Source of the DNA: Micrococcaceae bacterium
GTDB taxonomy: Bacteria > Actinomycetota > Actinomycetes > Actinomycetales > Micrococcaceae
NCBI GenBank assembly: GCA_047606545.1
Contig: JASGEI010000014.1
Location: forward strand, 18,043 to 82,042
Length of the DNA stretch: 64,000 nt
Direction of reading: 5' to 3'
The position numbers and the translations under genes are program-made. This document shows positions 4,446-64,000 of the stretch, in pieces. The notes beneath the pieces were generated by a model. The model was given only the letters and a program-made list of their open reading frames with translations, was not told the DNA's origin and ran no database searches. Each line of letters starts with the position of its first letter. The stretch's first letter is position 1.

Positions 4446-5021
4446 CTAATTATTCAGCTCTACAATTGCAGCATTGATATTATCTGTAATTTTGTCAATG
4501 TTACCTACACCATTAACAGTCTTAACTAAACCACGTTTCTGGTATACGTCAATTAGTGGTGCAGTTTCTTTAGTATAAACTTGCTGACGGTGACGAATTA
4601 CCTCTTCGTTATCATCAGAACGACCAGAGTCTTTTGCACGGTTTAACATACGCTCAACTAGCTCATCTTCATCAGCAGTTAATTCAATAACACCATCTAA
4701 CTCTTGACCATTTGCTGCCAAAATCTTATCTAGTTCTTCAACTTGGGCTAGTGTACGCGGATAACCATCAAGTAAGAAACCATTTTCAACATCATCTTCA
4801 GCTAGCCGATCACGAACCATATTATTCGTTACTGAATCAGGAACATAATTACCAGCATCAATATATTGTTTAGCTTCCACTCCTAGTGGAGTTTCATCTT
4901 TAATATTTTGGCGGAAAATATCGCCTGTTGAGATAGTAACGATACCTTGCTTTTCAGCAATACGAGCCGCTTGTGTACCTTTACCCGAGCCTGGAGGGCC
5001 TACAATCAATAGTCTAGTCAC
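4446..5021 (-). CDS. adk: Adenylate kinase
   Basis: P-loop [15 protein letters not shown] place the start at GTG 5021 (VTRLLIVG). It overlaps the secY stop (gtgactag) and has a gaagga RBS 8 nt upstream. The ORF-track start at 5060 adds a non-homologous 13-aa extension. Confidence 0.9.
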
Positions 5022-6424: not shown

Positions 6425-6886
6425 CTACTCAAGTTCAGTAGCTTTTCCACCTGCAGCTTCGATCTTCTTAGCTGCACTTGCAGAAAATGCATCTGCTTCT
6501 ACCTCAATAGCAACATCAATTGAGCCGTCGCCAAGAACTTTAACAAGAGAGTTCTTACGTACTGCGCCAGCTTCAACTAAATCATCAACTGTAACTTTTC
6601 CACCTTGAGGGAAAAGCTCAGCAAGAGTACCAACGTTTACAGCTTGGAATTCCAAACGTGCTGGGTTCTTGAAACCCTTTAGTTTTGGAAGACGCATCTG
6701 AAGTGGCACCTGACCACCTTCGAAACCTTGGCGTACCTGGTAACGAGCCTTAGTACCTTTAGTACCGCGACCAGCAGTTTTACCCTTAGAAGCCTCACCA
6801 CGACCAACGCGAGTCTTAGCTTTTTTGGCACCAGGAGCTGGCTTCAAATGATGAATTTTAAGAGTTTGTTCGTTGTTTTCAGTCAT
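6425..6886 (-). CDS. rplO: 50S ribosomal protein L15
   Basis: Sequence and operon position. Confidence 0.96.
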
Positions 6887-10850: not shown

Positions 10851-11119
10851 TTCTCATCCTTTGCATCTACTGTAGTTTCTTCAGTTTCAGTCTCTGCTTC
10901 AGCAACTTCATCAGTTTCTGAAGAATCAGCACCTATACCTAGTTCACGTTCACGCAAAATTGTGTAAATACGAGCAATCTCTTTCTTTACAGTCTTTAGA
11001 CGTGCGCTATTTTCCAACTGACCAGTAGCTGACTGGAAACGTAGGTTGAAAAGTTCTTCTTTGTGCTTAGCTAGTTCTGTAGTAAGCTCTTTTGAATCTT
11101 GAGAACGTAGATCAGCCAT
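10847..11119 (-). CDS. rpmC: 50S ribosomal protein L29 with acidic C-terminal tail
   Basis: [13 protein letters not shown]... The ATG at 11119 lies 1 nt after the rplP stop. The ORF-track start at 11137 would overlap rplP. Confidence 0.93.
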
Positions 11120-11540: not shown

Positions 11541-12335
11541 TTATGCCTGCGCTTCCGTAGTAGTCTTCTTGGTATCCGTATTTTGGTTTGCAGCATTATT
11601 ACGAGGAGCACGACGAGAACGATCGTTACGACGACGTCCATCACGTCCACCGCGACCACGCTTAGGAGCTTTAGCTTGCTGTGCAGCTAACTCTTTATCA
11701 GTTAGGTCACCCTTGTAAATCCATACCTTAACACCAATACGACCGAAAGTAGTATGTGCTTCATGAGTACCGTAATCGATGTTCGCACGAAGAGTGTGCA
11801 ATGGCACACGACCTTCACGGTAGAACTCGTTACGAGCCATTTCAGCGCCGCCTAGACGGCCTGAACATGCAACACGAATACCCTTTGCTCCGCCACGCTG
11901 AGCGCTTTGGATTGCCTTCTTCATCGCACGACGGAATGATACACGGCTGGCAAGCTGCTCTGCAATACCTTGAGCAACCAACTGAGCATCAATCTCTGGG
12001 TTCTTAACTTCAAGAATGTTTAGCTGTACTTGCTTGCCAGTTAATTTTTCTAGTTGACCACGTAGGCGATCTGCTTCAGCACCACGGCGTCCGATAACAA
12101 TACCTGGACGAGCAGTGTGGATATCGATGCGTACGCGATCACGAGTACGTTCAATCTGAACCTTTGAGATACCCGCACGTTCAAGACGCTTTTCAATCAT
12201 TTCGCGAATCTGAACATCTTCTTTTACGAAGTCACTGTATCGTTGTCCAGGTTTGTTACTGTCAGCGAACCAGCGAGATACGTGGTCAGTAGTGATCCCG
12301 AGTCGGAATCCGTTAGGATTAACTTTTTGTCCCAC
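11541..12335 (-). CDS. rpsC: 30S ribosomal protein S3 with basic C-terminal tail
   Basis: [13 protein letters not shown]... Confidence 0.98.
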
Positions 12336-13034: not shown

Positions 13035-13871
13035 TCAGCGTTTCTTACCAGTACGGCGACGACGGACAATGTACTTGTTGCTTTCCTTGTTAGGGTTACG
13101 AGTACGCCCCTCACGCTTACCGTTAGGGTTAACTGGGTGACGACCACCAGAAGTCTTAGCTTCACCACCACCGTGTGGGTGATCAATTGGGTTCATCACA
13201 ACACCACGTACAGTCGGACGGATGCCTTTCCAGCGGTTACGACCCGCTTTACCCCAGTTAATGTTGATTTGTTCTGCGTTACCTACTGTACCTACAGTAG
13301 CGCGGCAACGGATATCAACATTACGTACTTCACCTGAAGGAAGACGCAACTGACCGTAAGGGCCATCTTTCGCTACCAACTGGATACTTGCACCTGCAGA
13401 ACGACCTAGCTTAGCTCCGCCACCTGGACGAAGTTCCACAGCGTGAATGAAAGTACCAACAGGAATATTACGCAAAGGTAAGTTATTACCTGGTTTAATA
13501 TCTGCCTCAGGTCCTGCTTCCACTGTGTCGCCTTGCTTTAGCTTTTCAGGCGCAATGATATAACGCTTTTCACCATCAGAGTAGTGTAGTAGCGCAATAC
13601 GTGCAGTACGGTTTGGATCATATTCGATGTGCGCAACTTTAGCTAGCACACCATCTTTGTCATGACGACGGAAGTCAATTACACGGTACTGACGCTTGTG
13701 TCCACCACCGTGGTGACGAGCAGTAATATGCCCAGTGTTGTTACGTCCACCCTTTTTCGGGAGGGGACGAAGCAACGACTTCTCTGGTGTCGTCCGTGTA
13801 ATTTCAGTAAAGTCAGCAACAGAAGAGCCACGACGGCCTGGTGTTGTTGGCTTATATAAACGGATTCCCAT
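13035..13871 (-). CDS. rplB: 50S ribosomal protein L2
   Basis: [21 protein letters not shown] motif. Confidence 0.98.
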
Positions 13872-16178: not shown

Positions 16179-16262
16179 ATGCGTAGTGAATACGCACAAA
16201 GTCAATACTACCTGATTTTATATAAGCAATGCAAATTAAATTTTCGGCATTTTATGCAACTA

Positions 16263-16345
16263 ACACATTTTCTTAGTAATCGACTATTTCCACTCCATAT
16301 ATGCAAAGAAAATTACCTTTTAGTAAGAAAATGCGATAGAGAAGC
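16263..16345. repeat. Degenerate copy of an ~80-nt palindromic intergenic element (partner at 35845-35918)
   Basis: acacattttcttagtaatcgactatttccactcc...gaaaattaccttttagtaagaaaatgcgata aligns at about 80% with the 35845 copy in the same orientation. Confidence 0.65.
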
Positions 16346-35844: not shown

Positions 35845-35918
35845 TCACATTTTCTTACTAAAACAGTATTTCCACTTCTTATAAGCAACGAAAATACCGT
35901 TTTAGTAAGAAAATGTGA
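35845..35918. repeat. Long palindromic intergenic element (26 of 27 bp stem, ~19-nt loop)
   Basis: tcacattttcttactaaaacagtattt ... aaataccgttttagtaagaaaatgtga. It produces the mirror-image spurious ORFs 35754..35942 and 35770..35967. Confidence 0.85.
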
Positions 35919-50851: not shown

Positions 50852-52864
50852 TTACTTACCTACTGGAACTAACATGTATGGAGCATTATCATCTTTAGAA
50901 AACACCCAAACTTTGTCATTGTTGTTAGCAGGTAATAATGGGTGTTTTTGCCCTAATGATTCCATTTTGTTATTTGCAATATCAAATTTCACGGCTTCCC
51001 CATTGTGCCCAGTACCATAAGCAATACCGTTGTTATCAATGACCTTGAATGTAACACCATCAGTCGGAGAAGTAATCTTATGTCCAGGTGCTTGGTATCC
51101 TTTTTCAGTCTTAATCAGAACATATTTACCATCAGGAGAAGTTATCAAGTCAAGATTTTCATCTGTATTCGAATCCTCGCTGCTTGAACTCTCTGAATCT
51201 AAACTAGCTGTTGCTCTAACACTACTGGATATCTTTACTGGACTATCTATCTTTTCTGGATTCATTTTTTCGTAAGGGACTTCAGCACCAGTTTTAGCAT
51301 CATAAATCTTTTCTGCAGTGGGACTGAAACAGTAATCTCCAAGAATTCCTACACAAAGAGGCAACTGTTTCACGTCTGCATCAACAGAACTTGAATCATC
51401 AAAGTACTTATCGCCCTCTTTCGACCATAGGATTTTATTATTAGTGTTATCCCAAACTCCAGAACTATAGAAGGCGGTTTCTCCATACATAGAACTATAG
51501 AAGGCGGTTTCTCCATACATAGAACTATATGACTCACTGTAAGGACTAGTCATAGCTATAAACGGCGTGTAGTTGCTATTACTAGAAGGGCCGAGTGTAA
51601 TAAAATCATCACTACTACTTGAAGAATTCATTGAGTCAAAAACCTCTTGTGCTTTATCCGGCATCTTTGCTTTTACTTGGGCAATGATTTTATTTTCAAG
51701 AGGTTTAGTAAGCTGATCATCAATTTTCTTTGTCTTAGCTTCTTGAGTAGTTATCTCACCAGTTTCTGGATTAAAAATATTTGTCGAAGTATAGTCTGCT
51801 GAAGCAGTTTTATTCGGCTCAATATTTTCTTTGCCTTCTTGATGTTCAAAAAAACTTAAATACTGATCTTTGGTTTCGCCAGTAGCACTAGTCGCAGTAG
51901 CAGCTTTTTGACTTTCATAGTGGATTTGTAATCCCTTTTTTCCATTCACATCAAAGACGTTATATTCAGGAAAACTTCCTTTATCACTTTCAGGATTTCT
52001 AGTACGATCTGAAATTGGTTTAGCAACCCACTTTGTTTTACCATTAGTGGAGTCAATAGCCGTAATATCGGTAACAGTATCCATATAGTTACTATCATCG
52101 GAAGATGAACTAGTCGAACTACTCTGGGTACCATATTTCTGCTTAATAATAAAAGTAGTATCACCAACAGAAGCAATTTTAACTGTACTCCCTGTATCCT
52201 CAGTACTAGGTTGAATTAAAATACATTTTTTCTTGTTTGTAATATCTTTCAGTGGACCATCTGCAGTTGTATCACTGGGAGTATAGTTAGGATTTTTTTC
52301 AGGATTTGCATAATCATCAACATCACATTTTTTTGCTACTTCATCTGGCCTAGATGCAAATAAATCAGTCGATGCAGCATAAGCTCCGAAGCCACCCGCT
52401 AATAAAGCAACAGCTGCTCCACCAGCAATGAATAGCTTCTTTTTATCTTTTGAAGAACTGTGTTGTAACTTTTCAGAAAGAATTTTTATTTTACTAGTTT
52501 TATTGTTTTCTTTTTTAACAGCTGTGTCAGAATCCTTTGATTTTTTAGCATCAACTTTTTCTACTTTTACAGTCTTTACATTCTCGCCAGTTTTGCCTTC
52601 AGCAATACTTTTTTCTTCAGACGTACTACTATCTACTTTTTCTGGCTTTTTATCGATATCTTTGTCAGAACTTAAATCATTATCATTTACAGGTTTCTTA
52701 GCATTATTTGAGAGAGCAGTTTTACTAACCTTTTTGTTATTATCTTTTGATTTTTTCTGTTTTTTATTTTCCTTGACCGTTGTATTTTCTACTTTAGTTC
52801 CACAATTTGGACAAAACTTAGCTTCTGGTTTTAATTTATTGTTACAGTTCTCGCAGGTACTCAC
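50852..52864 (-). CDS. Zinc-ribbon / single-pass membrane protein with large PQQ/BamB-like beta-propeller-type ectodomain (gene 4)
   Basis: CENCNNKLKPEAKFCPNCG at the N-terminus, about 130-aa K/D/S-rich linker, TM LFIAGGAAVALLAGGFGAYAA. The ectodomain has AIDSTNGKTKW and NNKILWSKE repeat signatures. Confidence 0.7.
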   Translation of the reverse strand: MSTCENCNNKLKPEAKFCPNCGTKVENTTVKENKKQKKSKDNNKKVSKTALSNNAKKPVNDNDLSSDKDIDKKPEKVDSSTSEEKSIAEGKTGENVKTVKVEKVDAKKSKDSDTAVKKENNKTSKIKILSEKLQHSSSKDKKKLFIAGGAAVALLAGGFGAYAASTDLFASRPDEVAKKCDVDDYANPEKNPNYTPSDTTADGPLKDITNKKKCILIQPSTEDTGSTVKIASVGDTTFIIKQKYGTQSSSTSSSSDDSNYMDTVTDITAIDSTNGKTKWVAKPISDRTRNPESDKGSFPEYNVFDVNGKKGLQIHYESQKAATATSATGETKDQYLSFFEHQEGKENIEPNKTASADYTSTNIFNPETGEITTQEAKTKKIDDQLTKPLENKIIAQVKAKMPDKAQEVFDSMNSSSSSDDFITLGPSSNSNYTPFIAMTSPYSESYSSMYGETAFYSSMYGETAFYSSGVWDNTNNKILWSKEGDKYFDDSSSVDADVKQLPLCVGILGDYCFSPTAEKIYDAKTGAEVPYEKMNPEKIDSPVKISSSVRATASLDSESSSSEDSNTDENLDLITSPDGKYVLIKTEKGYQAPGHKITSPTDGVTFKVIDNNGIAYGTGHNGEAVKFDIANNKMESLGQKHPLLPANNNDKVWVFSKDDNAPYMLVPVGK
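51461..51530 (-). repeat. In-frame 30-bp tandem repeat, 2.3 copies, inside the 670-aa gene
   Basis: agaactatagaaggcggtttctccatacat occurs twice exactly, plus a partial third copy. It encodes MYGETAFYSS twice. Confidence 0.9.
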
Positions 52865-52886
52865 AATTAGTATTCCTTATATCAAA

Positions 52887-53294
52887 TTATTTTTTATTAA
52901 AGACTTTTTCGACATCAAGAGCTTTATAGTTTTTAAGCATTTCTTGTAATTTTGGGCTAATTGTACTGCTTGGAATTGCAGCATTTTGTTTCTCAACATA
53001 AGCAGTTATCTCATGTTGAAAAGTACTGGCTTTCGTAGAAAACTCTTTCTTAAATTTTGTAGTAAGTTCAGTCAAGCTTTCTTTATATTTCTGTATATCT
53101 AAAGTTTTAGCTTCGGAAGCGACTGCTTCCACTTTTGGTGTAGTCGTAATTGTTTTAGCTTGTTTATAATCACTAGTTGCGTCGATAACAGTATTATTGT
53201 TATTAGCTATCTCAGCAACCTCTACTTTAGTGCCACATTTTGTACAGAATTTAACTCGGCTTACATCATTGCCACAGTTCATACAAAAATTCAT
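52887..53294 (-). CDS. Small cytoplasmic zinc-ribbon protein (gene 3)
   Basis: CMNCGNDVSRVKFCTKCG at residues 4-21. The remainder is predicted helical and has no TM. Confidence 0.6.
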   Translation of the reverse strand: MNFCMNCGNDVSRVKFCTKCGTKVEVAEIANNNNTVIDATSDYKQAKTITTTPKVEAVASEAKTLDIQKYKESLTELTTKFKKEFSTKASTFQHEITAYVEKQNAAIPSSTISPKLQEMLKNYKALDVEKVFNKK

Positions 53295-53749
53295 TATGAA
53301 TTTTCCTTCACAGAGCCTTTTTCGGAACTATTAGTATCTTTATTAACAGATTTTTCTAATTCCTGATCCATTTCGTGCACATTTGTCTTATCTTTAAGCC
53401 CAAGTTGGTCCTCTAAAAGAAACTGGGTATATTGAGAATTTCTTACTGTAGCTACTTTGCTATCAAGCCAAATTCGAGTACCAAGAAGTTCTAAAACGCT
53501 CAAGTATATTGAAAAGACAAGCCAAAGAAGCACATTTAATGTAGTATTCGTGGCATCATGAGAGCTGCTACTGCTTCCCAAAAGACCAAAGCCACTCGCA
53601 ACAGCATTTAGCAAACTACTAAGATAATAAACAATATATGCACCACCGAGAATCTGTAACGCACAGACTCCTGGGAATACTTTAAAAAACAATTTCGCTA
53701 AGTTTGTTGTGTCATATCGGTCATAATCTGCATTAAATATACTTAACAT
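53294..53749 (-). CDS. Small 2-TM membrane protein, DUF4282-like (gene 2)
   Basis: Two hydrophobic segments and a charged tail. Its stop overlaps the next start. Family resemblance is tentative. Confidence 0.5.
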   Translation of the reverse strand: MLSIFNADYDRYDTTNLAKLFFKVFPGVCALQILGGAYIVYYLSSLLNAVASGFGLLGSSSSSHDATNTTLNVLLWLVFSIYLSVLELLGTRIWLDSKVATVRNSQYTQFLLEDQLGLKDKTNVHEMDQELEKSVNKDTNSSEKGSVKENS

Positions 53750-53757
53750 TATTTTCC

Positions 53758-54198
53758 TTAGTGAGAGAATGCGGCAAAGATACGGCCAAGAATAAGAGCA
53801 AATAGAATGATATCTACCGAAGAAATAATTAAACCTGTTATAGCAAAACCTCTAGGTTTACGGAATAGTCCAATGATAGAAAGAACCCACCCCAGGAAAT
53901 AACAAACCGGCCCTAACAACGGAATCCAACCAAAAAATAAACCAACTAAAGCTAAGATAAAACCGAAGAAGCCTACAGTATTTTTTTGTTTTACTTCAAT
54001 TTGATTTTGAACCACTACGTGAGTTACTCCGTTAGGAGTGTTAGCAACTTGCTGATCATAAAGAGGGCCATTAATATTGCTATTTGTTTTATGATTAACA
54101 TTGGCATTAATAACTTGATTACCAACAGCTGTACCGCAATTTACACAAAACTTTGCACCCAGTTTTAAATTCGCGTTACAATTTATACAATTATCCAT
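53758..54198 (-). CDS. Zinc-ribbon protein with C-terminal DUF4190-like 2-TM domain (gene 1)
   Basis: CINCNANLKLGAKFCVNCG at residues 4-22. C-terminal GFILALVGLFFGWIPLLG...LSIIGL...GLIISS. Confidence 0.65.
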   Translation of the reverse strand: MDNCINCNANLKLGAKFCVNCGTAVGNQVINANVNHKTNSNINGPLYDQQVANTPNGVTHVVVQNQIEVKQKNTVGFFGFILALVGLFFGWIPLLGPVCYFLGWVLSIIGLFRKPRGFAITGLIISSVDIILFALILGRIFAAFSH

Positions 54199-54255
54199 TT
54201 TGAACTTTCGTTGATTTTATTTATTCGTCATTTTTAAATGAAAAGCAGTATATAT

Positions 54256-54286
54256 ACTATACCCCCCCCCTTACCAGGGAAATCAA
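54256..54286 (-). promoter_or_regulatory. Candidate sigma-70-type promoter of the zinc-ribbon operon with a G9 tract in the spacer
   Basis: Minus strand: TTGATT (54286-54281), 19-nt spacer tccctggtaaGGGGGGGGG, TATAGT (54261-54256). The -10 lies 58 nt upstream of the ATG at 54198. Confidence 0.45.
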
Positions 54287-54456
54287 GCGAGGGTCTAGGC
54301 TATCATGATAAGAAATTTAATTTATACTTCAATCTTAGACATACATTATGCGACCACTATAGAAGAGAAACCATACCCCACTCCCCTTGACTTGATTTTT
54401 AGGCTAGTACCTAGCTGCAGTACCACTCATATACTTAATAGAACAGACTTATATAT

Positions 54457-54485
54457 TTGACTATCTTAAAATGCTCTAATAGTAT
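54457..54485 (+). promoter_or_regulatory. Candidate promoter of the divergent 54549 gene
   Basis: TTGACT, 17 nt, TAGTAT, about 64 nt upstream of the ATG. Confidence 0.45.
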
Positions 54486-54548
54486 TCAACTTTGATATGA
54501 TTATCGTATTATTTCTTTGTATTAATTAACTTTATTGTGTGAGGCAAA

Positions 54549-55616
54549 ATGAAAAAAAATATTAGAGTAGTAGCTTTATACCCTAAAGGACTACAAACTG
54601 GTGGCCCTGAAGCCTTTCATCAACTTGTTTCACAATTAAATACAGAAGGGGTTAGCGCATATTTAGCTGCTATCCCAGAAACTGAAAAAGAAACCCCTGT
54701 AAAACAATATGCAATCTATAACTGCCCAGAAATCAAATTTTCAGAAATAGAAGATACTGATATCATAATCTCACCCGAGTCTCGGAATTATATAAACTAC
54801 TTATTGGATATGAAAAATGAACATAAGTTTATTTGGTGGGTCAGTGTTAATTACTCTCCAACTTTCCCAAAATTACAAGTTGTAGATTCAATTCCGGTAT
54901 TATTGCGTTCAAATTTGAATCCTTTAAATCCAAAAGGTAAAGGTAATATATTAAGCATTGGCATGAAAGTTCTGAGGTGGCGTGCTAAAGATCCTAAAAA
55001 GTATCAAAACAAAATAAAAGAACATCCAGAAATAATGCACTTAATACAAACTGAATATTCACGTAATTGGGTTAAGAAGTGTTTCAATACTGAGGGTATC
55101 CCACTTATAGACTACAAGAATATGGTAGGGATAGATTCTAATGCTAATAAAAATAAAATGCAGATTGCTTATAGTGCCACTAAAGACCAGGGATTAGTCG
55201 AAAAACTCTTCCGAACCCTACCTGAATTTAATTTTATTGGCATTAAGGATATGAGTTATAAACAAGTCCAAAACACACTTAAAGAAAGTCAATATTTCTT
55301 AGACTTCGGACCACAACCAGGAAATGATGGTTTACCTCGTGAAGCTGCTCTTAACCAATGCCTAGTTGTTTTAGCAAACCGAGGCGCTGTAGCAGATAAC
55401 GATATTGATTTTCCAATAAATAATATTTGTAAAATTCCTTATGATAAAAATATTATTGCAAATACTACTAAACTGTTTAAAGATATAGCAGCTGATAAAA
55501 GTTATTACGAAAAGCTTTATACCTCACAAGCAACTTATCGAAATAAAGTTCAAAATGAAAAAGAAATTTTTAAAGAGCAAGTTAAATATCTAACTACAGT
55601 TTTCAATCAGCTCTAG
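54549..55616 (+). CDS. Hypothetical protein, possibly a divergent GT-B-fold glycosyltransferase
   Basis: N-terminal RVVALYPKGLQTGGPEAF and a C-terminal G..GLPREAA.. segment loosely resemble GT4 motifs. Very AT-rich. Weak call. Confidence 0.35.
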   Translation: MKKNIRVVALYPKGLQTGGPEAFHQLVSQLNTEGVSAYLAAIPETEKETPVKQYAIYNCPEIKFSEIEDTDIIISPESRNYINYLLDMKNEHKFIWWVSVNYSPTFPKLQVVDSIPVLLRSNLNPLNPKGKGNILSIGMKVLRWRAKDPKKYQNKIKEHPEIMHLIQTEYSRNWVKKCFNTEGIPLIDYKNMVGIDSNANKNKMQIAYSATKDQGLVEKLFRTLPEFNFIGIKDMSYKQVQNTLKESQYFLDFGPQPGNDGLPREAALNQCLVVLANRGAVADNDIDFPINNICKIPYDKNIIANTTKLFKDIAADKSYYEKLYTSQATYRNKVQNEKEIFKEQVKYLTTVFNQL

Positions 55617-55623
55617 TAAAACA

Positions 55624-56268
55624 CTACTGTAAGATAAATTCTGCTGGATCACTCTTAGGAATAGTACCTAACTGCACCACTAATTCATATTCGCCAGGTT
55701 GTGGCATCCCATCTGGCTCTTTACAACCAGCAGCTGAAAGTACTCGCGCCCAGTCCATGATGGCACTATCTGACTTACCGTTACCTATTAAAAGTTCGGT
55801 ATTTGTTGCTCCATCTTGGCAATCTTTAGAAGACCAAATCTGCTGGCCTCCTTTTTTCTTAATAATAAAAGTCTGCTGACTAGTTCCCACATTAAGCATG
55901 CATGACTTTTTACCTTTATTTTCAATATTCATTGTCAGCTTAGGTTCCATACCCGCTGAATAAACATCACGATCTGTTGCCGCAGAAACCTTAATATCAT
56001 CTGAATTACAAGTTGATGCGACTTCACCCGAATCATCATCTGTAGCTTGAGCTTGTTGTGAGTCAGCAGCGGTTAATGTAACTACACTTTGCGCTTGATC
56101 TTGAGCTGCATCTTTTGCTTTACTACGCTCAATAACTTTAATTATGCTCAACAACAATAATGAAACTATACCTACTGTTAATACTGTAACTAAAAACCGA
56201 CGACGTCGGTAAATCTCTGATTTACTGAACTGCTGTCTTGGTTGTTGCTGCATATGTGGAGAAGTCAT
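55624..56268 (-). CDS. Membrane-anchored extracytoplasmic protein with four Cys (DUF4232-like beta-sandwich?)
   Basis: Basic N-terminus, TM FLVTVLTVGIVSLLLLSIIKV, Q/A/D linker, then a C...C...C...C domain with a PGEYELVVQLG end. Confidence 0.5.
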   Translation of the reverse strand: MTSPHMQQQPRQQFSKSEIYRRRRFLVTVLTVGIVSLLLLSIIKVIERSKAKDAAQDQAQSVVTLTAADSQQAQATDDDSGEVASTCNSDDIKVSAATDRDVYSAGMEPKLTMNIENKGKKSCMLNVGTSQQTFIIKKKGGQQIWSSKDCQDGATNTELLIGNGKSDSAIMDWARVLSAAGCKEPDGMPQPGEYELVVQLGTIPKSDPAEFILQ

Positions 56269-56367: not shown

Positions 56368-58941
56368 TTAAAGCTCTGGCTCTTCGGCAGTAGTTTTTTC
56401 ACCATTGTCTGGGTTTTCAGCAACACCTGAAGTACCAGTTTCACCACTCTTACTACCAGTGAAAGAAAATTCTTTGTTTTCACCTTCTGTAACCACATCA
56501 ACTCGCACCGTTTCACCAGGTACTAACTCTTTGAACAAGATACGTTCAGCAAGTTGATCCTCAATATCACGCTGGATAACTCGACGTAGTGGACGAGCAC
56601 CCATTGATGGATCGTACCCACGTTCAGCCAATAACTCTTTTGCATCGTCAGAGAGTTCAATCTGAATATCCTGTGGAGTTAAACGCTTTTGCAATTTACC
56701 GACAAACATATCCACGATTTCACGGATTTCTTTACGGTTTAGCTGCGGGAATACAATTACTTCATCAACACGGTTAAGCATCTCTGGGCGGAAGTGCTCC
56801 TTCAATGCTGTTTGTACTTTACCTTTCATCAGGTCGTAACCTGTTTCTGGGTTTTCATCTTGTTGAAAACCAGTCTGTACACCACTAGAAGTAACAGCAG
56901 AACCTAGGTTAGTAGTCATAATGATTACAGTATTCCTAAAGTCTACTTCGCGCCCCTTACCATCTGTTAAGTGACCTTCTTCAAGGATTTGGAGCAAAGT
57001 GTTATAGACATCAGGATGGGCTTTTTCAACCTCATCAAATAGGACTACTGAGAATGGTTTACGGTGCACCTTTTCAGTTAATTGTCCGCCCTCTTCATAT
57101 CCAATATACCCAGGAGTAGAGCCAACTAGACGAGATACGGTATGTTTTTCACCGAATTCACTCATATCTAGCTGAATCAGTGCATCTTCGTCATCAAAAA
57201 GGAACTCAGCAAGTGCTTTTGCTAGCTCTGTCTTACCAACCCCAGTAGGACCTGCAAAGATAAATGAGCCATTTGGTCGCTTTGGATCTTTTAACCCAGC
57301 ACGAGTACGCCTAATTGACTGTGACAATGCTTTAACCGCACGTTCTTGCCCAACAACACGCTTGTGAAGTTCATCTTCCATCTTAAGCAGGCGAGTAGAT
57401 TCCTCTTCAGTAAGCTTGAATACTGGTACACCAGTTGATTGTGAAAGAACTTCCGCAATTACTTCTTCATCTACAGTAGAAATCGTATCTAACTCATTAT
57501 TCTTCCAAGCAGAATCCTTCGCATTACGCTCTTCAATCAGTTTCTGTTCTTTGTCACGAAGAGCCGCAGCTTTCTCGAATTCTTGCCCATCGATAGCGGA
57601 TTCTTTTGCCAAACGTACTTCTTCAATCTCACTGTCTAATTCTTTAACCTCGGGAGGTGAACTTAAACGCTGAATACGTAATCTAGCACCAGCTTCGTCA
57701 ATCAAGTCGATAGCCTTATCTGGCAAGAAACGATCATTAACATAACGACTAGAAAGGCTAACTGCAGCATGAATCGCACCATCGGTAATAGTTACTTTAT
57801 GGTGAGCCTCATAACGGTCACGTAGACCTTTCAAAATCTCAATAGCCTGCTCTGGGCTTGGCTCGTCGACTTGAATTGGTTGGAATCTACGCTCTAATGC
57901 ACCATCTTTTTCAACATATTTACGGTATTCTTCCAAAGTAGTGGCACCGATAATCTGGATTTCACCACGGGCCATCATCGGCTTTAGCATCGAAGCTGCA
58001 TCCACTGAACCTTCAGTAGTAGAGCCTGCACCAACTAATGAGTGAATCTCATCAATGAATAAAATAATGTCACCACGAGTCTGGATTTCTTTAAGAACTT
58101 TCTTTAAACGTTCCTCAAAGTCACCACGATACCTAGAACCAGCAATAACTGCACCCAAATCAAGAGTATATAGATGCTTATCTTTCAAAGTATCTGGAAC
58201 CCGACCAGCAGCAATGTCTTGGGCAAGACCCTCAACCACAGCAGTCTTACCAACGCCTGGTTCACCTGTCATCACTGGATTATTTTTGGTACGACGTGAA
58301 AGCACCTGCATCATGCGTTCTACTTCTTTTTCACGACCAATTACTGGATCTAACTTATTCTCACGAGCTGCAGCAGTTAAGTTACGACCAAACTGGTCAA
58401 GCACAGTAGAACCTGATGCAGTACCACGAGCCCTACCACCAATACCAGCGCCAGCCCCAACAGTATCATTGCTTGAGCTTGAATCTGAACTTTGAACTGA
58501 ACCTTGGAAACCGTTACGCAAGTTAATTACCTGATGCCTAACCTCAGAAAGATCAGCACCTAGTTTCACCAGAATCTGTGAAGCCATAACTTCTGGCTCA
58601 CGAATTAACCCAAGCAACAAGTGCTCAGTGCCGATGTGGTTATCACCAAGCTGCAATGCTTCACGCATCGAGCTTTCCAAAACTTTCTTTGCACGAGGTG
58701 TAAATGGAATGTGCTCTTGTGGCACTACATCACTTGGACCAATAGCATCATTAACTTCTTCACGAACTTTTTCTAGTGTGATACCAAGCTCTTTAAGCGC
58801 TTTTGCACCAATTCCTTCACCTTCATGGATTACTCCAAGTAGCATGTGCTCAGTGCCAATGTAATTATGGTTAAGCAAACGTGCTTCTTCCTTAGCCAAC
58901 ACCAAACATCTACGGGCTCTGTCAGTAAATCTTTCGAACAT
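56368..58941 (-). CDS. clpC: ATP-dependent Clp protease ATP-binding subunit ClpC
   Basis: Two Clp_N repeats, two AAA+ modules ([16 protein letters not shown]), UVR-like linker; 857 aa. Confidence 0.97.
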
Positions 58942-59058
58942 TCAATCTTCCCCTTGCACTTTGCATACGAAAATCTCTATGTTTCAAACTGTACTTGGTA
59001 TTACCGACAAAATACATACAAAAGTACAATTGTTCGCTATGGGCGTGGAAAATAAAAA

Positions 59059-60576
59059 TTATTTTTCAGGGCGAATAAATGGGAATAGAATAGTCTCTCG
59101 GATGCCGAAACCAGTAAGTGCCATCAATAATCGGTCAACTCCCATACCCATACCACCAGTTGGTGGCATGCCGTGTTCCATAGCTTTCAAGAAATCCTCA
59201 TCAATTACCATAGCTTCGTCATCACCTTGAGAAGCAAGTTTTGCTTGTTCTTTGAAACGTTCCCGCTGGATTACTGGATCAACTAATTCAGAATAGCCAG
59301 TACCTAGTTCAAAACCACGAACATATAGGTCCCATTTTTCTACGATACCTGGCTTTTCGCGGTGTTCACGTACCAGTGGTGAAGTTTCAACTGGGAAATC
59401 ATAGACAAAAGTAGGACCTTTTAAGTCATTACCAATTGTCTCTTCCCAAATCTCTTCCACTAATTTACCGTGGCCACGAAAAACACCTTTAATGTCTACT
59501 TCAAGCTTTTCTGCCAATTTTTCTAGCTCTGCAACGGTCGTCTCTGGGGTAATTTTTTCGCCAGCATGTTCAGAAAGTGAGTCATATAACGATAACCATT
59601 CCCAGTCGCCACCAAAATCATACTTCGTACCATCGGCAAGGGTAACTTTGGTGTCTCCTGCAACTGCAAGAGCGGCATTTTGCACCATTGTTTGCGTTAA
59701 AGCTGCAATTGATTTGTAATCGCCATAAGCTTCATAAACTTCCAAAGCGGCAAATTCTGGAGAGTGGGTAGAATCTGCGCCTTCATTACGGAAGTTACGA
59801 TTAATCTCATAAACTCGATCAATACCTCCCACAGCAGCTTTCTTTAGATAAAGCTCTGGTGCAATACGCAAAAACAAGTCCGTATCATACGCATTGATGT
59901 GTGTAGTAAATGGTGTAGCTGCAGCACCACCATGAATCGGATGCAACATCGGAGTTTCTATCTCGATAAAATCATCCCTATCGAGAGTATCCCGCAAGCT
60001 CTTTAGTACTTTGGCACGAGTTTTTACCATGTCTCGAGCTTCTTCACGCACAATCAAGTCAACGTAACGCTGACGAACACGAGTTTCCTCATTAAGATCT
60101 TTGTGCAAAGTAGGCAATGGACGAATTGCTTTTGAAGCTAACTGCCATTTATCAGCCATCACTGATAGCTCACCACGTTTAGAGCTAATTACCTCACCAG
60201 TAATTGAGACAATATCACCTAAATCAACATCTGACTTCCAAGCAGCGAGCTCCTCTTTCCCAACTGCTTTTTGACTAAGCATTGCTTGTAGGCGTGTGCC
60301 GTCACCCTCTTGTAAAGTAGCAAAACATAGTCGACCAGTATTACGTACGAAAACTACACGACCAGTGACACTAACTACATCACCAGTAGTGTCTTCGGCT
60401 TCCAGATGATCATACTTCTTGCGTATCTCTTTTAAAGTATGGGTACGAGGCACACTTACTGGGTAGGCCTCTTGACTATTATCTAAATACTTCTGACGTT
60501 TCTCCTTACGGATTTTAATCTGCTCAGGAGTATCGTCTTCAATTTTTACTGGATTTTGTGATGTAGATTTACTCAT
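59059..60576 (-). CDS. lysS: Lysine--tRNA ligase (class II)
   Basis: OB-fold N-domain plus class II motifs (FRNEG, GGxGxGxDRL); 505 aa. Confidence 0.96.
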   Translation of the reverse strand: MSKSTSQNPVKIEDDTPEQIKIRKEKRQKYLDNSQEAYPVSVPRTHTLKEIRKKYDHLEAEDTTGDVVSVTGRVVFVRNTGRLCFATLQEGDGTRLQAMLSQKAVGKEELAAWKSDVDLGDIVSITGEVISSKRGELSVMADKWQLASKAIRPLPTLHKDLNEETRVRQRYVDLIVREEARDMVKTRAKVLKSLRDTLDRDDFIEIETPMLHPIHGGAAATPFTTHINAYDTDLFLRIAPELYLKKAAVGGIDRVYEINRNFRNEGADSTHSPEFAALEVYEAYGDYKSIAALTQTMVQNAALAVAGDTKVTLADGTKYDFGGDWEWLSLYDSLSEHAGEKITPETTVAELEKLAEKLEVDIKGVFRGHGKLVEEIWEETIGNDLKGPTFVYDFPVETSPLVREHREKPGIVEKWDLYVRGFELGTGYSELVDPVIQRERFKEQAKLASQGDDEAMVIDEDFLKAMEHGMPPTGGMGMGVDRLLMALTGFGIRETILFPFIRPEK

Positions 60577-60744
60577 TTGTCTAGTCTAGCAAAAATCACC
60601 TAGTTGGATACGGTATTTAACCGCTAAATTACTCTAATCTCCGACAGTTTCCCCAGCCAATACTTCTACAGGTAATGTGTATTGTGCTTTCAGTGACTTC
60701 TCTGGATATTCTATTAATTTGATAAGCAAAAGATACTGCCAAGC

Positions 60745-60762
60745 ATGTTTCACGTGAAACAT
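60745..60762. promoter_or_regulatory. Perfect 18-bp palindrome (candidate operator) upstream of lysS
   Basis: atgtttcac|gtgaaacat, 170 nt upstream of the lysS start. Confidence 0.3.
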
Positions 60763-60800
60763 CAATTGGTGAAATTGAGAAGTAGCTTAGGTCATAAGTA

Positions 60801-60861
60801 AGGTATACATTTTTATAGTTTCTTTACAAAATTTCGTGTGGAATTAAGAAAAATGTATACC
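60801..60861. repeat. Left 61-bp inverted repeat flanking the DUF559 gene
   Basis: aggtatacatttttatagtttctttacaaaatttcgtgtggaattaagaaaaatgtatacc matches the reverse complement of 61895-61955 at 57 of 61 positions. Its own ends, ggtatacattttt and aaaaatgtatacc, are mutually complementary. Confidence 0.9.
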
Positions 60862-60874
60862 CTAAACTTATTTA

Positions 60875-61834
60875 CTAGCAATTCAAAGCCATCTGCCTTG
60901 TAATAATTGTTTTCGATAATGCTGGCACGTAACTAACTAGTTTTGAAAGTAAATCCAAAGGATTGTGTATAGTTTTCCAATCAAGATGCACTATATTATA
61001 TCCATTAGCGATAACTTTTGCATCGCGATCTCGTTCGTGATCAATTTGTTTCTTAGCATCACCATATTTTCCATAGTATTTTTCATTTCCGTCAAATTCT
61101 ATAATCAAGTTAGCAGCAGGAAAATAAAAATCTGTACGATATTTTGAACCAGAGACATTTACACAATATTGCATTTTAAGAGTAGTTAAACCAATTTTTG
61201 CTAATGCAATTCTGCATAGAGTTTCACCTGGAGATTCAGCTTTAGGAGTGCAATTACTTATAATTTTCTGAATTCGGCTCGTAGCGTTACATGTTTTGAA
61301 GCTACCAAAACGCTCTTGGAGTTGTGTTTTTGTAATTTTGTATTTTCGGCAAGCACTATCAGCAACGCATAACGCTATTTCATAACTGCATTCTCTGGCA
61401 CAATCTAATACTGTATCAATTACGTCAGTATGAACAATAGTAGAGGTGGTAACTGTATTGCATTTTTGTAAGTAATGATGGAATTTTACTAGGTTATTTC
61501 TAGAATTTTTCTTATGTGTGACCCTGAAATGCATTGTATTTTGATAATAAGGAACGCTTAAATTGAGAATATAAGCTGCAGATATATGGCTAATAATCGG
61601 ATCTTTTAACGTGGTGACAACAGCTAAGAGTTTTACCAAGTACTTTTCATAGACATTTAGTTGGGCATAAACATCTTTTGCGATGTATCTTCCCGCATGC
61701 AATTTTGTCATTTTTCCAGCATTTATTTCTTTGTAAAGGCTATTATTAGAAAAATTACTTTCAGGAAAATTCTGTGAGCTGACGATGTGGCTAGCTAAAA
61801 AAGATAATTGTTCTGTAGACATAATAACAATCAT
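60875..61834 (-). CDS. AbiEi-like N-terminal domain / DUF559 (Vsr-like PD-(D/E)XK endonuclease fold) protein
   Basis: The C-terminus RTDFYFPAANLIIEFDGNEKYYG...ERDRDAKVIANGYNIVHL fits the DUF559 pattern. The N-terminal half has IISHISAAYILNL, typical of AbiEi_4-type domains. The start may be M1 (61834) or M5 (61822). Confidence 0.65.
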   Translation of the reverse strand: MIVIMSTEQLSFLASHIVSSQNFPESNFSNNSLYKEINAGKMTKLHAGRYIAKDVYAQLNVYEKYLVKLLAVVTTLKDPIISHISAAYILNLSVPYYQNTMHFRVTHKKNSRNNLVKFHHYLQKCNTVTTSTIVHTDVIDTVLDCARECSYEIALCVADSACRKYKITKTQLQERFGSFKTCNATSRIQKIISNCTPKAESPGETLCRIALAKIGLTTLKMQYCVNVSGSKYRTDFYFPAANLIIEFDGNEKYYGKYGDAKKQIDHERDRDAKVIANGYNIVHLDWKTIHNPLDLLSKLVSYVPALSKTIITRQMALNC

Positions 61835-61894
61835 GCAGCAAGCCAGATAAATTAGCTAATAGAGAATGTTCCTTATGTGGATAACTAACTTCAA

Positions 61895-61955
61895 GGCATA
61901 CATTTTTCTTAATTCTACACAAAATTTCGTAAAGAAACTATAAAAATGTATACCT
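61895..61955. repeat. Right 61-bp inverted repeat flanking the DUF559 gene
   Basis: ggcatacatttttcttaattctacacaaaatttcgtaaagaaactataaaaatgtatacct. Confidence 0.9.
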
Positions 61956-61974
61956 CGGGATTTTAGGGTTTATG

Positions 61975-62859
61975 TTAAAAACCTTTTTGAGGACTACTTA
62001 GCAGAGCCCGCATCTTATTCAATGTTGCTTTAGGTATTTTGTTCGAATAGCTGTGTTCTAGTTGATTTATAGTAGCAAGACCTAAGGCTTTATAACTTGC
62101 CAACATTGGGTCGTTTTTCAAAGTTGTAATGTGCGAAGCTACTCCTTGTACATCGCCAGCAACGATTAACCCATTTAAGCTAGACATGCCAGTAGTAAGC
62201 GCATTGTCTAAACTACTAGTTAACAATGGCGCAAGGAAGGCATTTACATTATCAACACCGACTTTTTCTAAAGTATTTCGTGCTTGGTTAACGACCATAG
62301 CTAAATTGTTAGAAGCATGGGTAAGAGCAGCATGGTATAACGAACGTTTATTCTCTTCAATAATTACTGGTGCTCCACCCATTTCAATAACGAGTGCCTG
62401 CGCAATTGGTAGCACATTATTAGGAGCAGTTATTGCAAACCCACAGCCTACCAACTTACCAATATCTAAACTCGTTCCCGTGAAATTCATCGCTGGATGG
62501 ATAGCCATCCCAATAGCTCCCAGCGCAATAGCTGGCGCAAATACACTAACTCCAAATCGCCCTGAAGTATGTACTAATAACTGTCCTGGTTTCCACAAGC
62601 CTAACTTGGAAATACCAGAAATCATCTCCGGTAATACATCATCAGGAATTGCTAAGAATACTAGGTCAGATTCAGCAATTACTTCTTCAATTTCCATGAC
62701 TGAGACTCCAGGCACCATAACTGCCACCCGCTCGCAACTCTCTTCTGAGCTCGTATACATACCCACAACTTTGTGACCAGCCGCACGTAGAACTGCAGCT
62801 AAAATGACACCGACTTTACCGGCACCAATAAAACCAATCTTTAAACGTGGTGGTGTCAT
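61975..62859 (-). CDS. Rossmann-fold / DUF2520 domain protein (oxidoreductase-like)
   Basis: IGFIGAGKVG dinucleotide-binding motif. Its position next to DUF3180 and folK mirrors my recollection of M. tuberculosis Rv3603c. Confidence 0.65.
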   Translation of the reverse strand: MTPPRLKIGFIGAGKVGVILAAVLRAAGHKVVGMYTSSEESCERVAVMVPGVSVMEIEEVIAESDLVFLAIPDDVLPEMISGISKLGLWKPGQLLVHTSGRFGVSVFAPAIALGAIGMAIHPAMNFTGTSLDIGKLVGCGFAITAPNNVLPIAQALVIEMGGAPVIIEENKRSLYHAALTHASNNLAMVVNQARNTLEKVGVDNVNAFLAPLLTSSLDNALTTGMSSLNGLIVAGDVQGVASHITTLKNDPMLASYKALGLATINQLEHSYSNKIPKATLNKMRALLSSPQKGF

Positions 62860-63347
62860 TTTTCCTCGTCTTTAATCATGCCCCATTTTTGGATAAAACT
62901 ACTTAAAATCCATAATAGTATGTTTATTGCGATAGTTATTAAACATAAAAAGAACGGTGTGTGTACTGGTCGTTCTGACCAGGATGGTAATAAGTAGAAT
63001 AACACCCCTACATGCCATCCCACAAAAATACTTGAAATAACTATGCCAGCTTGAGCAAGCGCAATAGTGCGACTTGCAATATAGGGATTTAATGGCTCTT
63101 TGCGTTTACCAACATGCCATTGGTAAATAGGATAACTTAAGATTGCCAGTACCAAGATAATCAATGAATTTGTTATTAAAGCCCAATTAGAAAAATAGGG
63201 TAATACCAAAGAATGGGTATCACAAAAAATAACAGCTAACCAACCTAACAATGTAGCACCTACAGCTATCTGTATAGACCTTACTGGTGTAAGTGCCGGC
63301 ATACTAGGTTTATTCGCCACGATAGACTTCAATCTCATCAATACCAA
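62856..63347 (-). CDS. DUF3180-family integral membrane protein
   Basis: Four TM segments immediately downstream of folK. Start uncertain: 63347, 63338, or 63302, which would avoid the overlap with folK. Confidence 0.6.
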   Translation of the reverse strand: MVLMRLKSIVANKPSMPALTPVRSIQIAVGATLLGWLAVIFCDTHSLVLPYFSNWALITNSLIILVLAILSYPIYQWHVGKRKEPLNPYIASRTIALAQAGIVISSIFVGWHVGVLFYLLPSWSERPVHTPFFLCLITIAINILLWILSSFIQKWGMIKDEEK

Positions 63348-64000
63348 TAGAATCCAACATAATATCAGCCACGGCTACTCCTTCAACAAACTCGGCTTTT
63401 GAATCCATCAAATACCATGGGTAAAGAACAAATGCTCGCTCATGTGCCCGTGGATGTGGCAACGTTAATTCATCGGTATCCATAGTTACATCGTCGTAAC
63501 GGATAATATCAATATCTAAAGTCCTAGCGCCCCAGCGCACTTCTCGAATCCGACCATGTAAATTTTCAATTTCATGAATAAACTCTAGTAAGTCTTCTGG
63601 CTCTAATGAGGTCTTAAATTCGGCAACCAAGTTTAGATAAGGAGGTTGTTGTGGTCCACCTATAGCCTCAGAGATTACGATTGGAGACACTCTAGCCAAT
63701 TTCATAAATGACGGCTCCGCTAACTCTTTGACCGCATCTTGCAAAGTCTCTTTACTACGTCCCAAATTAGAGCCAAGTGCCAAGATTACCTCATTCGTAA
63801 TCTCTACCGCACCAGTTTTATACTTTTCTTCTAAAGACTCTGGAACTGCGTCCGTACTTGTACTTAATTTGTTATATTCTCTGCGAATTGTAATTGCAAT
63901 ATCTTGGAATTTTGGCTTAATTGGGGCTTCTGGTTTATGAACTGTGACCTCTACAGCTTCTGGTGCAAAACGTTCCAAAATTAATTCAGCAATTTCTTCA
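63310..64000 (-). CDS. folK: Bifunctional dihydroneopterin aldolase / HPPK (FolB-FolK fusion), 5' end outside window
   Basis: The frame stays open to the window edge. ...EEIAELILERFAPEAVEVTVHKPEAPI is a FolB C-terminus. After a linker comes the HPPK domain (ILALGSNLG, RWGARTLDIDII, LPHPRAHERAFVL). Confidence 0.8.
   Translation of the reverse strand, partial: EEIAELILERFAPEAVEVTVHKPEAPIKPKFQDIAITIRREYNKLSTSTDAVPESLEEKYKTGAVEITNEVILALGSNLGRSKETLQDAVKELAEPSFMKLARVSPIVISEAIGGPQQPPYLNLVAEFKTSLEPEDLLEFIHEIENLHGRIREVRWGARTLDIDIIRYDDVTMDTDELTLPHPRAHERAFVLYPWYLMDSKAEFVEGVAVADIMLDSIGIDEIEVYRGE

Follow-up and report, generated by a model that had tools for sequence, protein, structure and literature searches.

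A predicted AbiEi/DUF559-type nuclease gene bracketed by a pair of hairpin-forming palindromes in a Micrococcaceae bacterium

Why should a single nuclease gene, standing alone between housekeeping genes, be enclosed by two copies of the same long palindrome? We met this arrangement in a 64,000-nucleotide stretch of a Micrococcaceae bacterium genome, hereafter called the window, between lysS and a gene for a DUF2520 protein. The original prediction held that the repeats and the gene could form a selfish or mobile cassette using a PD-(D/E)xK nuclease instead of a classical transposase, or an invertible segment. To explore this issue, we re-examined the locus, compared it with a sister species and then looked for the same arrangement around homologous genes.

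The repeats and the gene they enclose

The two repeats, at window positions 60801-60861 and 61895-61955, are reverse complements at 57 of 61 positions, as the original prediction stated, and a repeat search extends the arms to 60801-60874 and 61882-61955 (74 nt at 89%). The 13-mer GGTATACATTTTT occurs four times in the window with at most one mismatch, and all four occurrences form the two ends of the two repeats; shuffled sequences give a mean of 0.22, and 0 of 100 shuffles reach four. Each copy is itself a palindrome that folds as a long hairpin, at -13 to -27 kcal/mol with z-scores of -4.9 to -8.6. The upstream copy (61895-61955) lies 19 nt after the stop of the DUF2520 gene, has its outer GTATAC core at 61948-61953 and scores 92.2 bits with a covariance model of the repeat, while the downstream copy (60801-60861) begins 13 nt after the stop codon of the enclosed ORF, has its outer GTATAC core at 60803-60808 and scores 92.4 bits. 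No Rfam family was matched within window positions 58000-64000.

One ORF lies between the repeats, at 60875-61834 on the minus strand, encoding 319 aa from the first ATG; the likely true start is the second ATG at 61822, giving 315 aa. GC content is 0.30-0.35 across the unit against about 0.41-0.45 in the flanking genes. The original assignment of the protein to a DUF559/AbiEi-like nuclease fold was correct, although the DUF559 call is weak for this sequence alone (Pfam E=0.023, 15 bits against a 20.6-bit cut-off). It is secured by the family profile, the predicted structure and the conserved residues. A word-based search of 5.8 billion proteins found only the protein itself, but an exhaustive HMMER search identified a family with 3185 representatives at E<=1e-3, the best relative being 36% identical. 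Residues D235, E246, D248 and K252 are invariant in 30 sequences and retained here; among 30 full-length homologues, DUF559 is matched in 23, MTES_1575 in 19 and AbiEi_4 in 11, and the family profile hits the DUF559 structure 3hrl at E=5e-6. PADLOC matches AbiEi at E=3.2e-7, and the AF2 model (pLDDT 92) matches AbiEi 6y8q (E 2.8e-5), the homing endonuclease I-Bth0305I (3r3p; TM 0.72 on the target, rmsd 2.9 A) and Vsr (1vsr). The N-terminal ~200 residues correspond to an AbiEi-like winged-helix (wHTH) domain by profile and by predicted fold, fused to a Vsr/DUF559-type PD-(D/E)xK nuclease. Pfam, NCBIfam and PADLOC show only AbiEi and DUF559-type matches and no known transposase family.

Just inside the upstream palindrome, at 61876-61884 on the minus strand, lies the DnaA-box-like 9-mer TTATCCACA (reading TGTGGATAA on the plus strand), 41 nt before the first ATG and 53 nt before the second. 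It is the only occurrence in the window.

An empty site and solo repeats in a sister species

We next asked whether the unit is present in relatives. In a sister-species MAG (JASGDC01), which shares 96% identity in the DUF2520 protein and about 88-90% in nucleotides, the flanks are contiguous and the whole 1,145-bp unit is absent. This unit corresponds to window positions 60803-61947, measured from one outer GTATAC core to the other and including one copy of the core. A single GTATAC core remains in the sister contig (L003), where the outer repeat ends would meet: the L003 sequence cccgagGTATACtttacttat at 10902-10922 corresponds to the window junctions cccgagGTATACattttt and aaaaatGTATACcttacttat. 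The edges of the difference coincide with the outer ends of the repeats. The two copies differ at 4 of 61 positions (6.6%), against 10-12% between the species, which is consistent with gain after the split; however, only one empty site was found, the orthologous loci of the other cassettes described below (murJ|femAB, purU|icd, hydrolase|ppa) lying outside the sequence compared, and without an outgroup a clean deletion in the sister lineage cannot be excluded.

The surroundings have changed in other ways. Window 60808-60729 matches L003 10908-10987, and window 60729-59053 matches L003 15443-17119, so that the flank at 60577-60800, which is not part of the cassette, holds 3' remnants of a PTS EIIBCA gene (60729-60800) and of a LacI-family gene, plus the lysS upstream region (60577-60729), left by a 4.45-kb deletion relative to the sister species. 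The original prediction that the cassette sits where panC, panD and coaX would be was only partly right: panC follows the DUF2520 gene only in a more distant MAG, whereas the sister species has a sucrose PTS operon there.

The sister genome also has two stand-alone copies of the same repeat, on contigs L001 (6811-6870) and L002 (5324-5383). They are 85-89% identical to the window copies, both lie between convergent genes and they carry 13-bp perfect terminal inverted repeats. An exact-end scan of the sister genome found these two copies, and the covariance model found no more in the 122 kb searched, its weak hit on a related contig (L004) proving to be a different palindrome family. In metagenome and viral scans, 25 hits to the end pattern are all unrelated sequences, and a tblastn search against plasmids gave no match.

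Palindrome pairs around divergent homologues

We then examined homologues at only 24-36% identity in two related MAGs, one metagenome contig, Kocuria oceani, Kocuria flava and Cellulomonas. They sit at different housekeeping loci, although the K. oceani and K. flava copies share one (tatD|rsmA). Seven of eight loci (L030, L031, L032, L033, K. oceani L036, K. flava L037 and Cellulomonas L040) are bracketed, or bracketed as far as the contig reaches, by their own pair of 60-74-nt palindromes; only L034 has no detectable repeats, and the L040 contig breaks in a poly-G run at the palindrome. The two hairpins at each locus belong to the same family (74-96% identical in their better orientation) but differ between loci, and this holds across genomes of 40-75% GC. 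The pair is direct in three of the homologous cassettes. Start-to-start spacing of the pairs is 1032-1093 nt in the window and the three related-MAG loci with direct pairs, and 1229-1357 nt in Kocuria. The L033-type palindrome has two further solo copies in the same genome, at L004 5044-5113 and 13493-13556. Long hairpins are rare otherwise: L003 has none in 21 kb, and the window has two others in 64 kb. The Kocuria palindromes give only sub-threshold miRNA-hairpin matches in Rfam. The gene is more AT-rich than its host.

The stem structure is maintained in Kocuria. In L037, 8 of 9 differences between the two copies form 4 compensated mirrored pairs; in L036, 6 of 11 form 3 pairs, and the rest lie in or beside the loop. 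Intriguingly, the flanks of L036 and L037 align in minus orientation while the gene aligns in plus orientation, so the cassette lies in opposite orientation in the two species at the same locus. The orientation difference proposed in the original prediction was found, but only among homologues; three K. flava-type assemblies share one orientation, and the inversion breakpoints could not be pinned to the palindromes, since the non-coding interior does not align between the species.

All nine homologous loci carry a TCCACA core about 50 nt before the start codon, usually as a full DnaA-box-like TTATCCACA or TTGTCCACA. A sigma-70 promoter reading of this motif was rejected, as there is no consistent -10 element at 16-18 nt and a promoter scan found nothing at that position.

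A probably mobile single-gene cassette

Taken together, these results suggest, with moderate confidence, that the segment is a discrete, recombining and probably mobile single-gene cassette of a type that recurs across the gene family, comprising the nuclease gene, its own upstream control region and two copies of a cognate hairpin-forming palindrome. That the nuclease acts on the palindromes is inferred, with no biochemical or population evidence that it touches them. In this view, the protein would bind its own palindromes as a symmetric dimer and cut at their feet, which in this element is the palindromic GTATAC core found at all four stem ends (the inner core of the upstream copy reads GCATAC). 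Joining the two outer cores would excise the unit and leave one core, the state seen in the sister species, while the reverse reaction, or break repair templated on an occupied allele, would insert it. Recombination between the copies would invert the gene, flip a hairpin loop, which would explain direct versus inverted pairs, or delete the gene and leave a solo palindrome. The upstream hairpin also sits where a terminator for the interrupted upstream operon would be, which would make insertion harmless, and the conserved box may either tie expression to DnaA and replication status or be the operator of the protein's own wHTH. However, no near-identical copies exist within a genome, paralogues being only 24-36% identical, so there is no sign of recent transposition bursts, and the shared locus in K. 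oceani and K. flava speaks for long vertical residence. The 6-bp shared core lies inside the repeat, so no classical target-site duplication can be defined.

The strongest alternative, though we consider it unlikely, is that the palindromes are dispersed, REP-like terminator or insulator hairpins with no functional link to the nuclease, and that an ordinary accessory gene, for example a defence or regulatory gene, happens to be insulated on both sides, with presence and absence arising from ordinary recombination. Solo copies do lie at the 3' ends of genes, the upstream copy always follows the stop codon of the upstream gene within about 5-35 nt, other long palindromes in the window sit right after the tuf and rplA operons with no such gene nearby, and long hairpins after genes occur elsewhere in these MAGs, for example after panC in L004. 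Hairpins of this kind therefore also exist independently, perhaps as terminators, and the possibility raised in the original prediction, that the repeat is a common stand-alone element unrelated to DUF559 genes, is only partly borne out. This view does not explain why the two hairpins at each locus are of one family that differs between loci, why this recurs for one gene family or why the edges of the empty site coincide with the outer repeat ends; in addition, no canonical terminator features (T-tract) were found at the window hairpins. It is also unlikely, and more so, that the gene is a free-standing homing endonuclease gene copied in by repair of a break in the unoccupied allele, with the palindromes as accessories that, for example, disrupt the recognition site or terminate transcription. 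The similarity of the predicted nuclease domain to I-Bth0305I and the intergenic insertion between conserved housekeeping genes, with presence and absence among relatives, fit this reading, but homing does not by itself create or need paired palindromes or solo copies, and the full GTATAC core is preserved at both junctions rather than being split.

Less likely still is a composite element in which two copies of a MITE-like palindrome, mobilised in trans by an unidentified transposase, captured a passenger nuclease gene. The solo copies with terminal inverted repeats, the TA dinucleotides abutting three of the four copies and the absence of the whole unit from the sister species are in its favour. 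On the other hand, the recurrence of the architecture around divergent homologues with unrelated palindromes would require repeated independent capture of the same gene family, and no transposase lies nearby in any locus. An IS630/mariner-like TA target-site duplication was rejected because the empty site keeps GTATAC, not a TA target, and the right flank of the unit is CG. An integron attC reading was rejected on context, as there is no integrase and no array, only single cassettes between housekeeping genes. Chance or assembly artefact is effectively refuted: although the sequences come from MAGs, the shuffles and the appearance of the same architecture in independent assemblies, including isolate genomes of Kocuria, speak against it.

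The organisation is closest to REP/RAYT (REPIN) systems (Bertels & Rainey 2011, PMC3116915; PMC3337134; see also Nunvar 2010), in which a single-copy enzyme gene is flanked by two copies of its cognate extragenic palindrome, the palindrome is dispersed as solo intergenic copies, often at gene 3' ends, each paralogue has its own palindrome family and residence is long and largely vertical. Here, however, the enzyme is a wHTH plus PD-(D/E)xK (Vsr/DUF559) nuclease by prediction and not an HUH Y1 transposase, the palindromes are 60-74 nt rather than 20-40 nt and lack GTAG/CGTC heads, the pair can be direct or inverted, a DnaA-box-like motif is part of the unit and known copy numbers are very low (2-4, with 2-3 solo copies seen, though not from tolerant scans of whole genomes), far below typical REP families. 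Vsr-like (EDxHD) homing endonucleases such as I-Bth0305I (PMC3239194) share the nuclease fold and are selfish genes present or absent at a conserved site, but they are intron-encoded within phage genes, whereas this gene is free-standing in bacterial intergenic DNA, encodes an AbiEi-like N-terminal domain and is flanked by palindrome pairs. AbiEi, the antitoxin of the type IV AbiE toxin-antitoxin system, is probably a wHTH repressor that binds inverted repeats in its own promoter; here the repeats bracket the gene rather than lying only in the promoter, the C-terminus is a nuclease and no AbiEii nucleotidyltransferase partner is present in any locus. Like IS200/IS605-type and other hairpin-ended insertion sequences and MITE-bracketed composite elements, the cassette is a compact unit of about 1.1 kb with structured ends, short sequence-specific junctions and non-autonomous solo derivatives, but it has no HUH, DDE, serine or tyrosine transposase, no TnpB and no multi-copy identical elements, the window holding one family gene. 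As in invertible, phase-variable segments, inverted repeats flank the unit; however, no invertase gene was found in the window neighbourhood or the related loci, and inversion would not switch a promoter relative to a fixed gene, because the promoter region lies inside the segment. Our literature searches found no description of this architecture.

A broader possibility, which we put forward only tentatively, is that the widespread actinobacterial AbiEi-N/DUF559 proteins (over 3,000 clusters at 50% identity) are the enzymes of a new class of palindrome-based genetic element, each recognising and cutting its own 60-74-nt cruciform or hairpin palindrome and thereby moving, inverting or copying both its own cassette and solo palindromes, with expression or activity tied to DnaA through the conserved box. 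Such a role would give a concrete function to a large family now labelled only 'DUF559' or 'AbiEi family antitoxin domain-containing', would offer compact sequence- or structure-specific nuclease and site pairs, and would add a second, unrelated enzyme class to the REP/RAYT idea of long-lived, host-tolerated palindrome systems. It would also explain where long intergenic palindromes in Micrococcales come from, and the conserved DnaA-box-like motif suggests a link between a selfish cassette and the replication initiator.

Paired palindromic repeats and the enclosed gene

Window positions 60801-60861 and 61895-61955 are reverse complements at 57 of 61 positions, and the gapless extension reaches 74 nt at 89% (60801-74 / 61882-955), which confirms the inverted repeat described in the original prediction. 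Each copy is itself an imperfect palindrome with perfect 13-bp ends, GGTATACATTTTT...AAAAATGTATACC. With one mismatch allowed, this 13-mer occurs four times in the 64-kb window, all at these ends, while shuffled sequences give a mean of 0.22 and none of 100 shuffles reach four. Each copy folds into a long hairpin with z-scores of -4.9 to -8.6. The repeats enclose one ORF, 60875-61834 on the minus strand. GC is 0.30-0.35 across the unit and about 0.41-0.45 in the neighbouring lysS and DUF2520 genes. A low-GC stretch (0.29-0.35) at window 52400-55600 includes a 355-aa ORF (54549-55616, + strand) with no Pfam match, next to a 214-aa ORF (55624-56268, minus strand) with no significant Pfam match, and is possibly another acquired island.

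On its own, the protein sequence only grazes Pfam DUF559 (E=0.023, below the cut-off), while its N-terminal part matches the PADLOC AbiEi models (E=3e-7). A word-based search of 5.8 billion proteins found only the protein itself; however, an exhaustive HMMER search found 3,185 representative clusters, aligned full-length at about 300 aa, with the best at 36% identity. In an alignment of 30 members, D235, E246, D248, K252 and R270 are invariant and present here. Of these 30, 23 hit DUF559, 19 hit the Vsr-type MTES_1575 REase model and 11 hit AbiEi_4. The family profile hits the DUF559 structure 3hrl (E=5e-6) and, weakly, AbiEi. An AlphaFold model (pLDDT 92, pTM 0.89) matches AbiEi 6y8q (E=2.8e-5), the catalytic domain of the I-Bth0305I homing endonuclease (TM 0.72 on the target) and E. 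coli Vsr. In public sources the relatives are named 'DUF559 domain-containing protein' or 'AbiEi family antitoxin domain-containing protein', in Kocuria, Arthrobacter, Cellulomonas and Janibacter. The DUF559 Vsr-like fold assigned in the original prediction is therefore right. No AbiEii partner is present.

Occupancy of the locus and solo copies of the repeat

We next compared the locus with that of a sister species. The neighbouring DUF2520 gene product has a 96%-identical orthologue in MAG JASGDC01, a Micrococcaceae bacterium, whose locus (designated L003) aligns to the window at 88-90% nucleotide identity. In L003 the DUF2520 stop is followed by ...cccgagGTATACtttacttattgtc..., which runs straight into the 3' end of a convergent PTS gene. 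In the same orientation the window reads ...cccgagGTATAC, followed by the unit (attttt...palindrome...gene...palindrome...aaaaatGTATAC) and then by cttacttatgac... The whole palindrome-gene-palindrome unit, 1,145 bp, is therefore absent from the sister species, and a single GTATAC core remains exactly where the two outer stem feet would meet. The joined ends would form the 10-bp palindrome AGGTATACCT, while L003 has AGGTATACTT. The two repeat copies differ by 6.6%, less than the 10-12% between the species. This fits insertion after the split, but four differences are too few to be firm and, without an outgroup, a clean loss in the sister lineage cannot be excluded.

The locus is a variable spot. 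L003 carries an intact 4.5-kb sucrose-type PTS/GH32/LacI operon between the DUF2520 gene and lysS (L003 10931-15538), of which the window retains only the last about 57 nt and 96 nt of the PTS (EIIBCA) and LacI-family genes (60577-60800), so the window lineage deleted it (junction at 60729). A more distant MAG, JASGFC01, has panC at this place. The gene order proposed in the original prediction, in which the cassette would occupy the position of panC, panD and coaX, is thus only partly applicable. Between lysS and clpC the sister MAG carries, in addition, a restriction-modification island (L003 17147-20288, corresponding to window 58941-59059) with two D12-class methyltransferase ORFs, an unknown ORF and an AlwI-family endonuclease. 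In the window lysS and clpC are adjacent, making this a second indel hotspot next to the first.

The repeat also exists on its own. A scan of one genome per species for the exact end pattern found two copies, both in the sister MAG (6811-6870 in the contig stretch L001 and 5324-5383 in L002). They are 85-89% identical to the window copies, and each lies between convergent genes with no family gene nearby. Metagenome and viral scans returned 25 palindromes that share only the ends and are unrelated inside, and a covariance model found no further copies in the 122 kb of sequence searched. The repeat family is therefore lineage-restricted and low in copy number as far as could be seen.

Palindromes and a conserved motif around homologous genes

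The main new result is that this architecture recurs across the gene family. To explore this, we analysed the contexts of nine homologues. In JASGFC01, the homologue between murJ and femAB (locus L030) is flanked by hairpin repeats of about 60 nt at 2880-2939 and 3954-4013; the one between a purU-like gene and icd (L032) by 68-nt repeats that are 96% identical, the downstream copy overlapping the last codons; and the one between an MFS gene and rnd (L033) by inverted 61-nt hairpins (75%). In JASGDC01, the homologue between a hydrolase gene and ppa (L031) has 73-nt repeats, 77% identical. In Kocuria oceani (L036) and K. flava (L037), the gene lies between tatD and rsmA and is flanked by near-perfect palindromes: 70 nt and 84% identical to each other in K. 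oceani, with extended inverted arms of 104 nt, and 74 nt and 88% identical to each other in K. flava, with extended inverted arms of 136 nt. In Cellulomonas sp. (L040), where the gene follows a kinase gene, a 74-nt palindrome lies upstream and the same sequence restarts at the stop codon, where the contig breaks; this contig ends in a run of over 100 G (3437-3541) directly after the start of the downstream palindrome, probably a sequencing or assembly artefact triggered by the palindrome. A 1.7-kb metagenome contig with unresolved neighbours (L035) has a hairpin over the stop codon but is too short upstream. However, no flanking repeats were detectable around the JASGFC01 homologue between an aminotransferase gene and mnmA (L034).

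The palindromes are unrelated in sequence between loci but paired within each locus. Pairs are direct in L030-L032 and inverted in the window and L033, while in Kocuria the copies are such good palindromes that both orientations fit about equally. Start-to-start spacing is 1032-1093 nt in the low-GC genomes where the pair is direct. Other long hairpins are rare in the same sequences: L003 has none in 21 kb, and the flanks of L030, L031, L032 and L034 have none. In JASGFC01, a 21-kb stretch (L004) has three long solo palindromes, of which two (5044-5113 and 13493-13556) belong to the family that brackets the L033 cassette and one, after panC (11661-11726), belongs to another family. So there are two cases of a gene flanked by its own palindrome type together with dispersed solo copies. 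Outside the Kocuria palindromes lie arrays of 20-51-nt tandem repeats (L036 2258-2328 and 3577-3762; L037 2040-2103 and 3563-3811), each reiterating the outer-arm motif (GGGGACTCGGCG / CCGAGTCCCC). The arrays on the two sides are in mutually inverted orientation and resemble iterated binding sites or footprints.

The palindromic structure is maintained. Between the two K. flava copies, 8 of 9 differences form four fully compensated mirrored pairs and the ninth lies in the loop; in K. oceani, 6 of 11 form three compensated pairs and the rest lie in or beside the loop. This means either selection for a hairpin, cruciform or symmetric binding site, or a copying mechanism that regenerates symmetry. 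Intriguingly, although K. oceani and K. flava carry the cassette at the same locus, the flanks align in opposite orientation (159-2247 to 5903-3812, and 3728-5683 to 2101-163) while the gene aligns in the same orientation (2699-3375 to 2732-3414). The cassette is therefore inverted relative to its neighbours, either by inversion between the palindromes, to which the breakpoints could not be finely assigned, or by independent insertion. Three K. flava-type assemblies agree with each other.

A cis motif is also conserved. The classical DnaA-box 9-mer TTATCCACA occurs once in the 64-kb window, just inside the upstream palindrome in gene sense (61876-61884). The identical 9-mer sits at the same place in L031, L032, L033 and L035 and nowhere else in those loci, and it is absent from L001-L004 and L030. 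In L035 (8-41), a contig of 52% GC, the box is preceded by an inverted near-copy (TGTGGATTA) 16 nt upstream, giving a convergent pair of DnaA-box-like sites. Cellulomonas has TTGTCCACA, which appears to be the high-GC actinobacterial form of the DnaA box, while L030, L034 and Kocuria keep the TCCACA core. The distance to the annotated start codon is 50-53 nt in five loci (L032, L033, L035, L036 and L037) and 49 nt in L040; in the window and L034 it becomes 53 and 50 nt if the second in-frame ATG is used, whereas L030 (39 nt) and L031 (91 nt) deviate. No sigma-70-type -10 element follows at a fixed distance. We read the motif as a protein-binding site, which could be either a DnaA box or the operator of the cassette's own wHTH.

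A possible mechanism and its alternatives

Taken together, the segment is a discrete cassette made of a palindrome, a control region with the conserved box, the nuclease gene and a second palindrome. It differs in occupancy between sister species and, in homologues, in orientation, and it leaves or accompanies solo palindromes. The same design is conserved across Micrococcales from 40% to 75% GC. The closest organisational parallel is REP/RAYT, where an enzyme gene is flanked by its cognate dispersed palindromes (PMC3116915, PMC3337134); however, the enzyme here is unrelated, the palindromes are longer and the copy numbers seen are low. Our preferred mechanism, which is inference, is that the nuclease binds its palindromes and cuts at the stem feet, here the GTATAC core. 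Joining of the outer cores would give excision and the reverse reaction insertion, while recombination between copies would give inversion, loop flipping or solo relics.

The fold link to I-Bth0305I (PMC3239194) keeps a homing-type mechanism possible. The main rival reading is that the hairpins are merely terminator-like REP elements. The window does hold a second, unrelated family of 74-80-nt palindromic repeats (CACATTTTCTTACTAAAA...TTTTAGTAAGAAAATGTG), two solo copies of which (16260-16339 and 35845-35918) lie in the intergenic regions just downstream of a 396-aa ORF (probably tuf) and a 227-aa ORF (probably rplA); these may be terminator-like, or the cognate sites of a family gene outside the window. 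However, the terminator reading does not explain the same-family pairing across the loci or the edges of the indel.

Full-text searches found no description of palindrome-bracketed DUF559/AbiEi genes, the nearest mention being a table that lists 'DUF559 domain-containing protein' among annotations enriched at predicted programmed inversions (PMC9881135), and Rfam has no matching family. We consider the cassette to be a selfish or REP-like palindrome system that differs from those already known in its enzyme, with a substantial chance that it is a new class once the biochemistry is done. It is important to note that the paralogues are only 24-36% identical, that no identical copies exist and that the Kocuria cassettes share a locus, all of which speaks against an active transposon. 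One small Micrococcaceae MAG of roughly 42% GC, JASGFC01, carries at least four highly divergent paralogues of the family (L030, L032, L033 and L034), each alone between housekeeping genes, suggesting long-term coexistence of several cassette lineages in one genome. With its divergent paralogues, its lack of identical copies and the locus shared in Kocuria, the system therefore looks old and mostly vertically inherited, with occasional gain and loss, as RAYT systems are.
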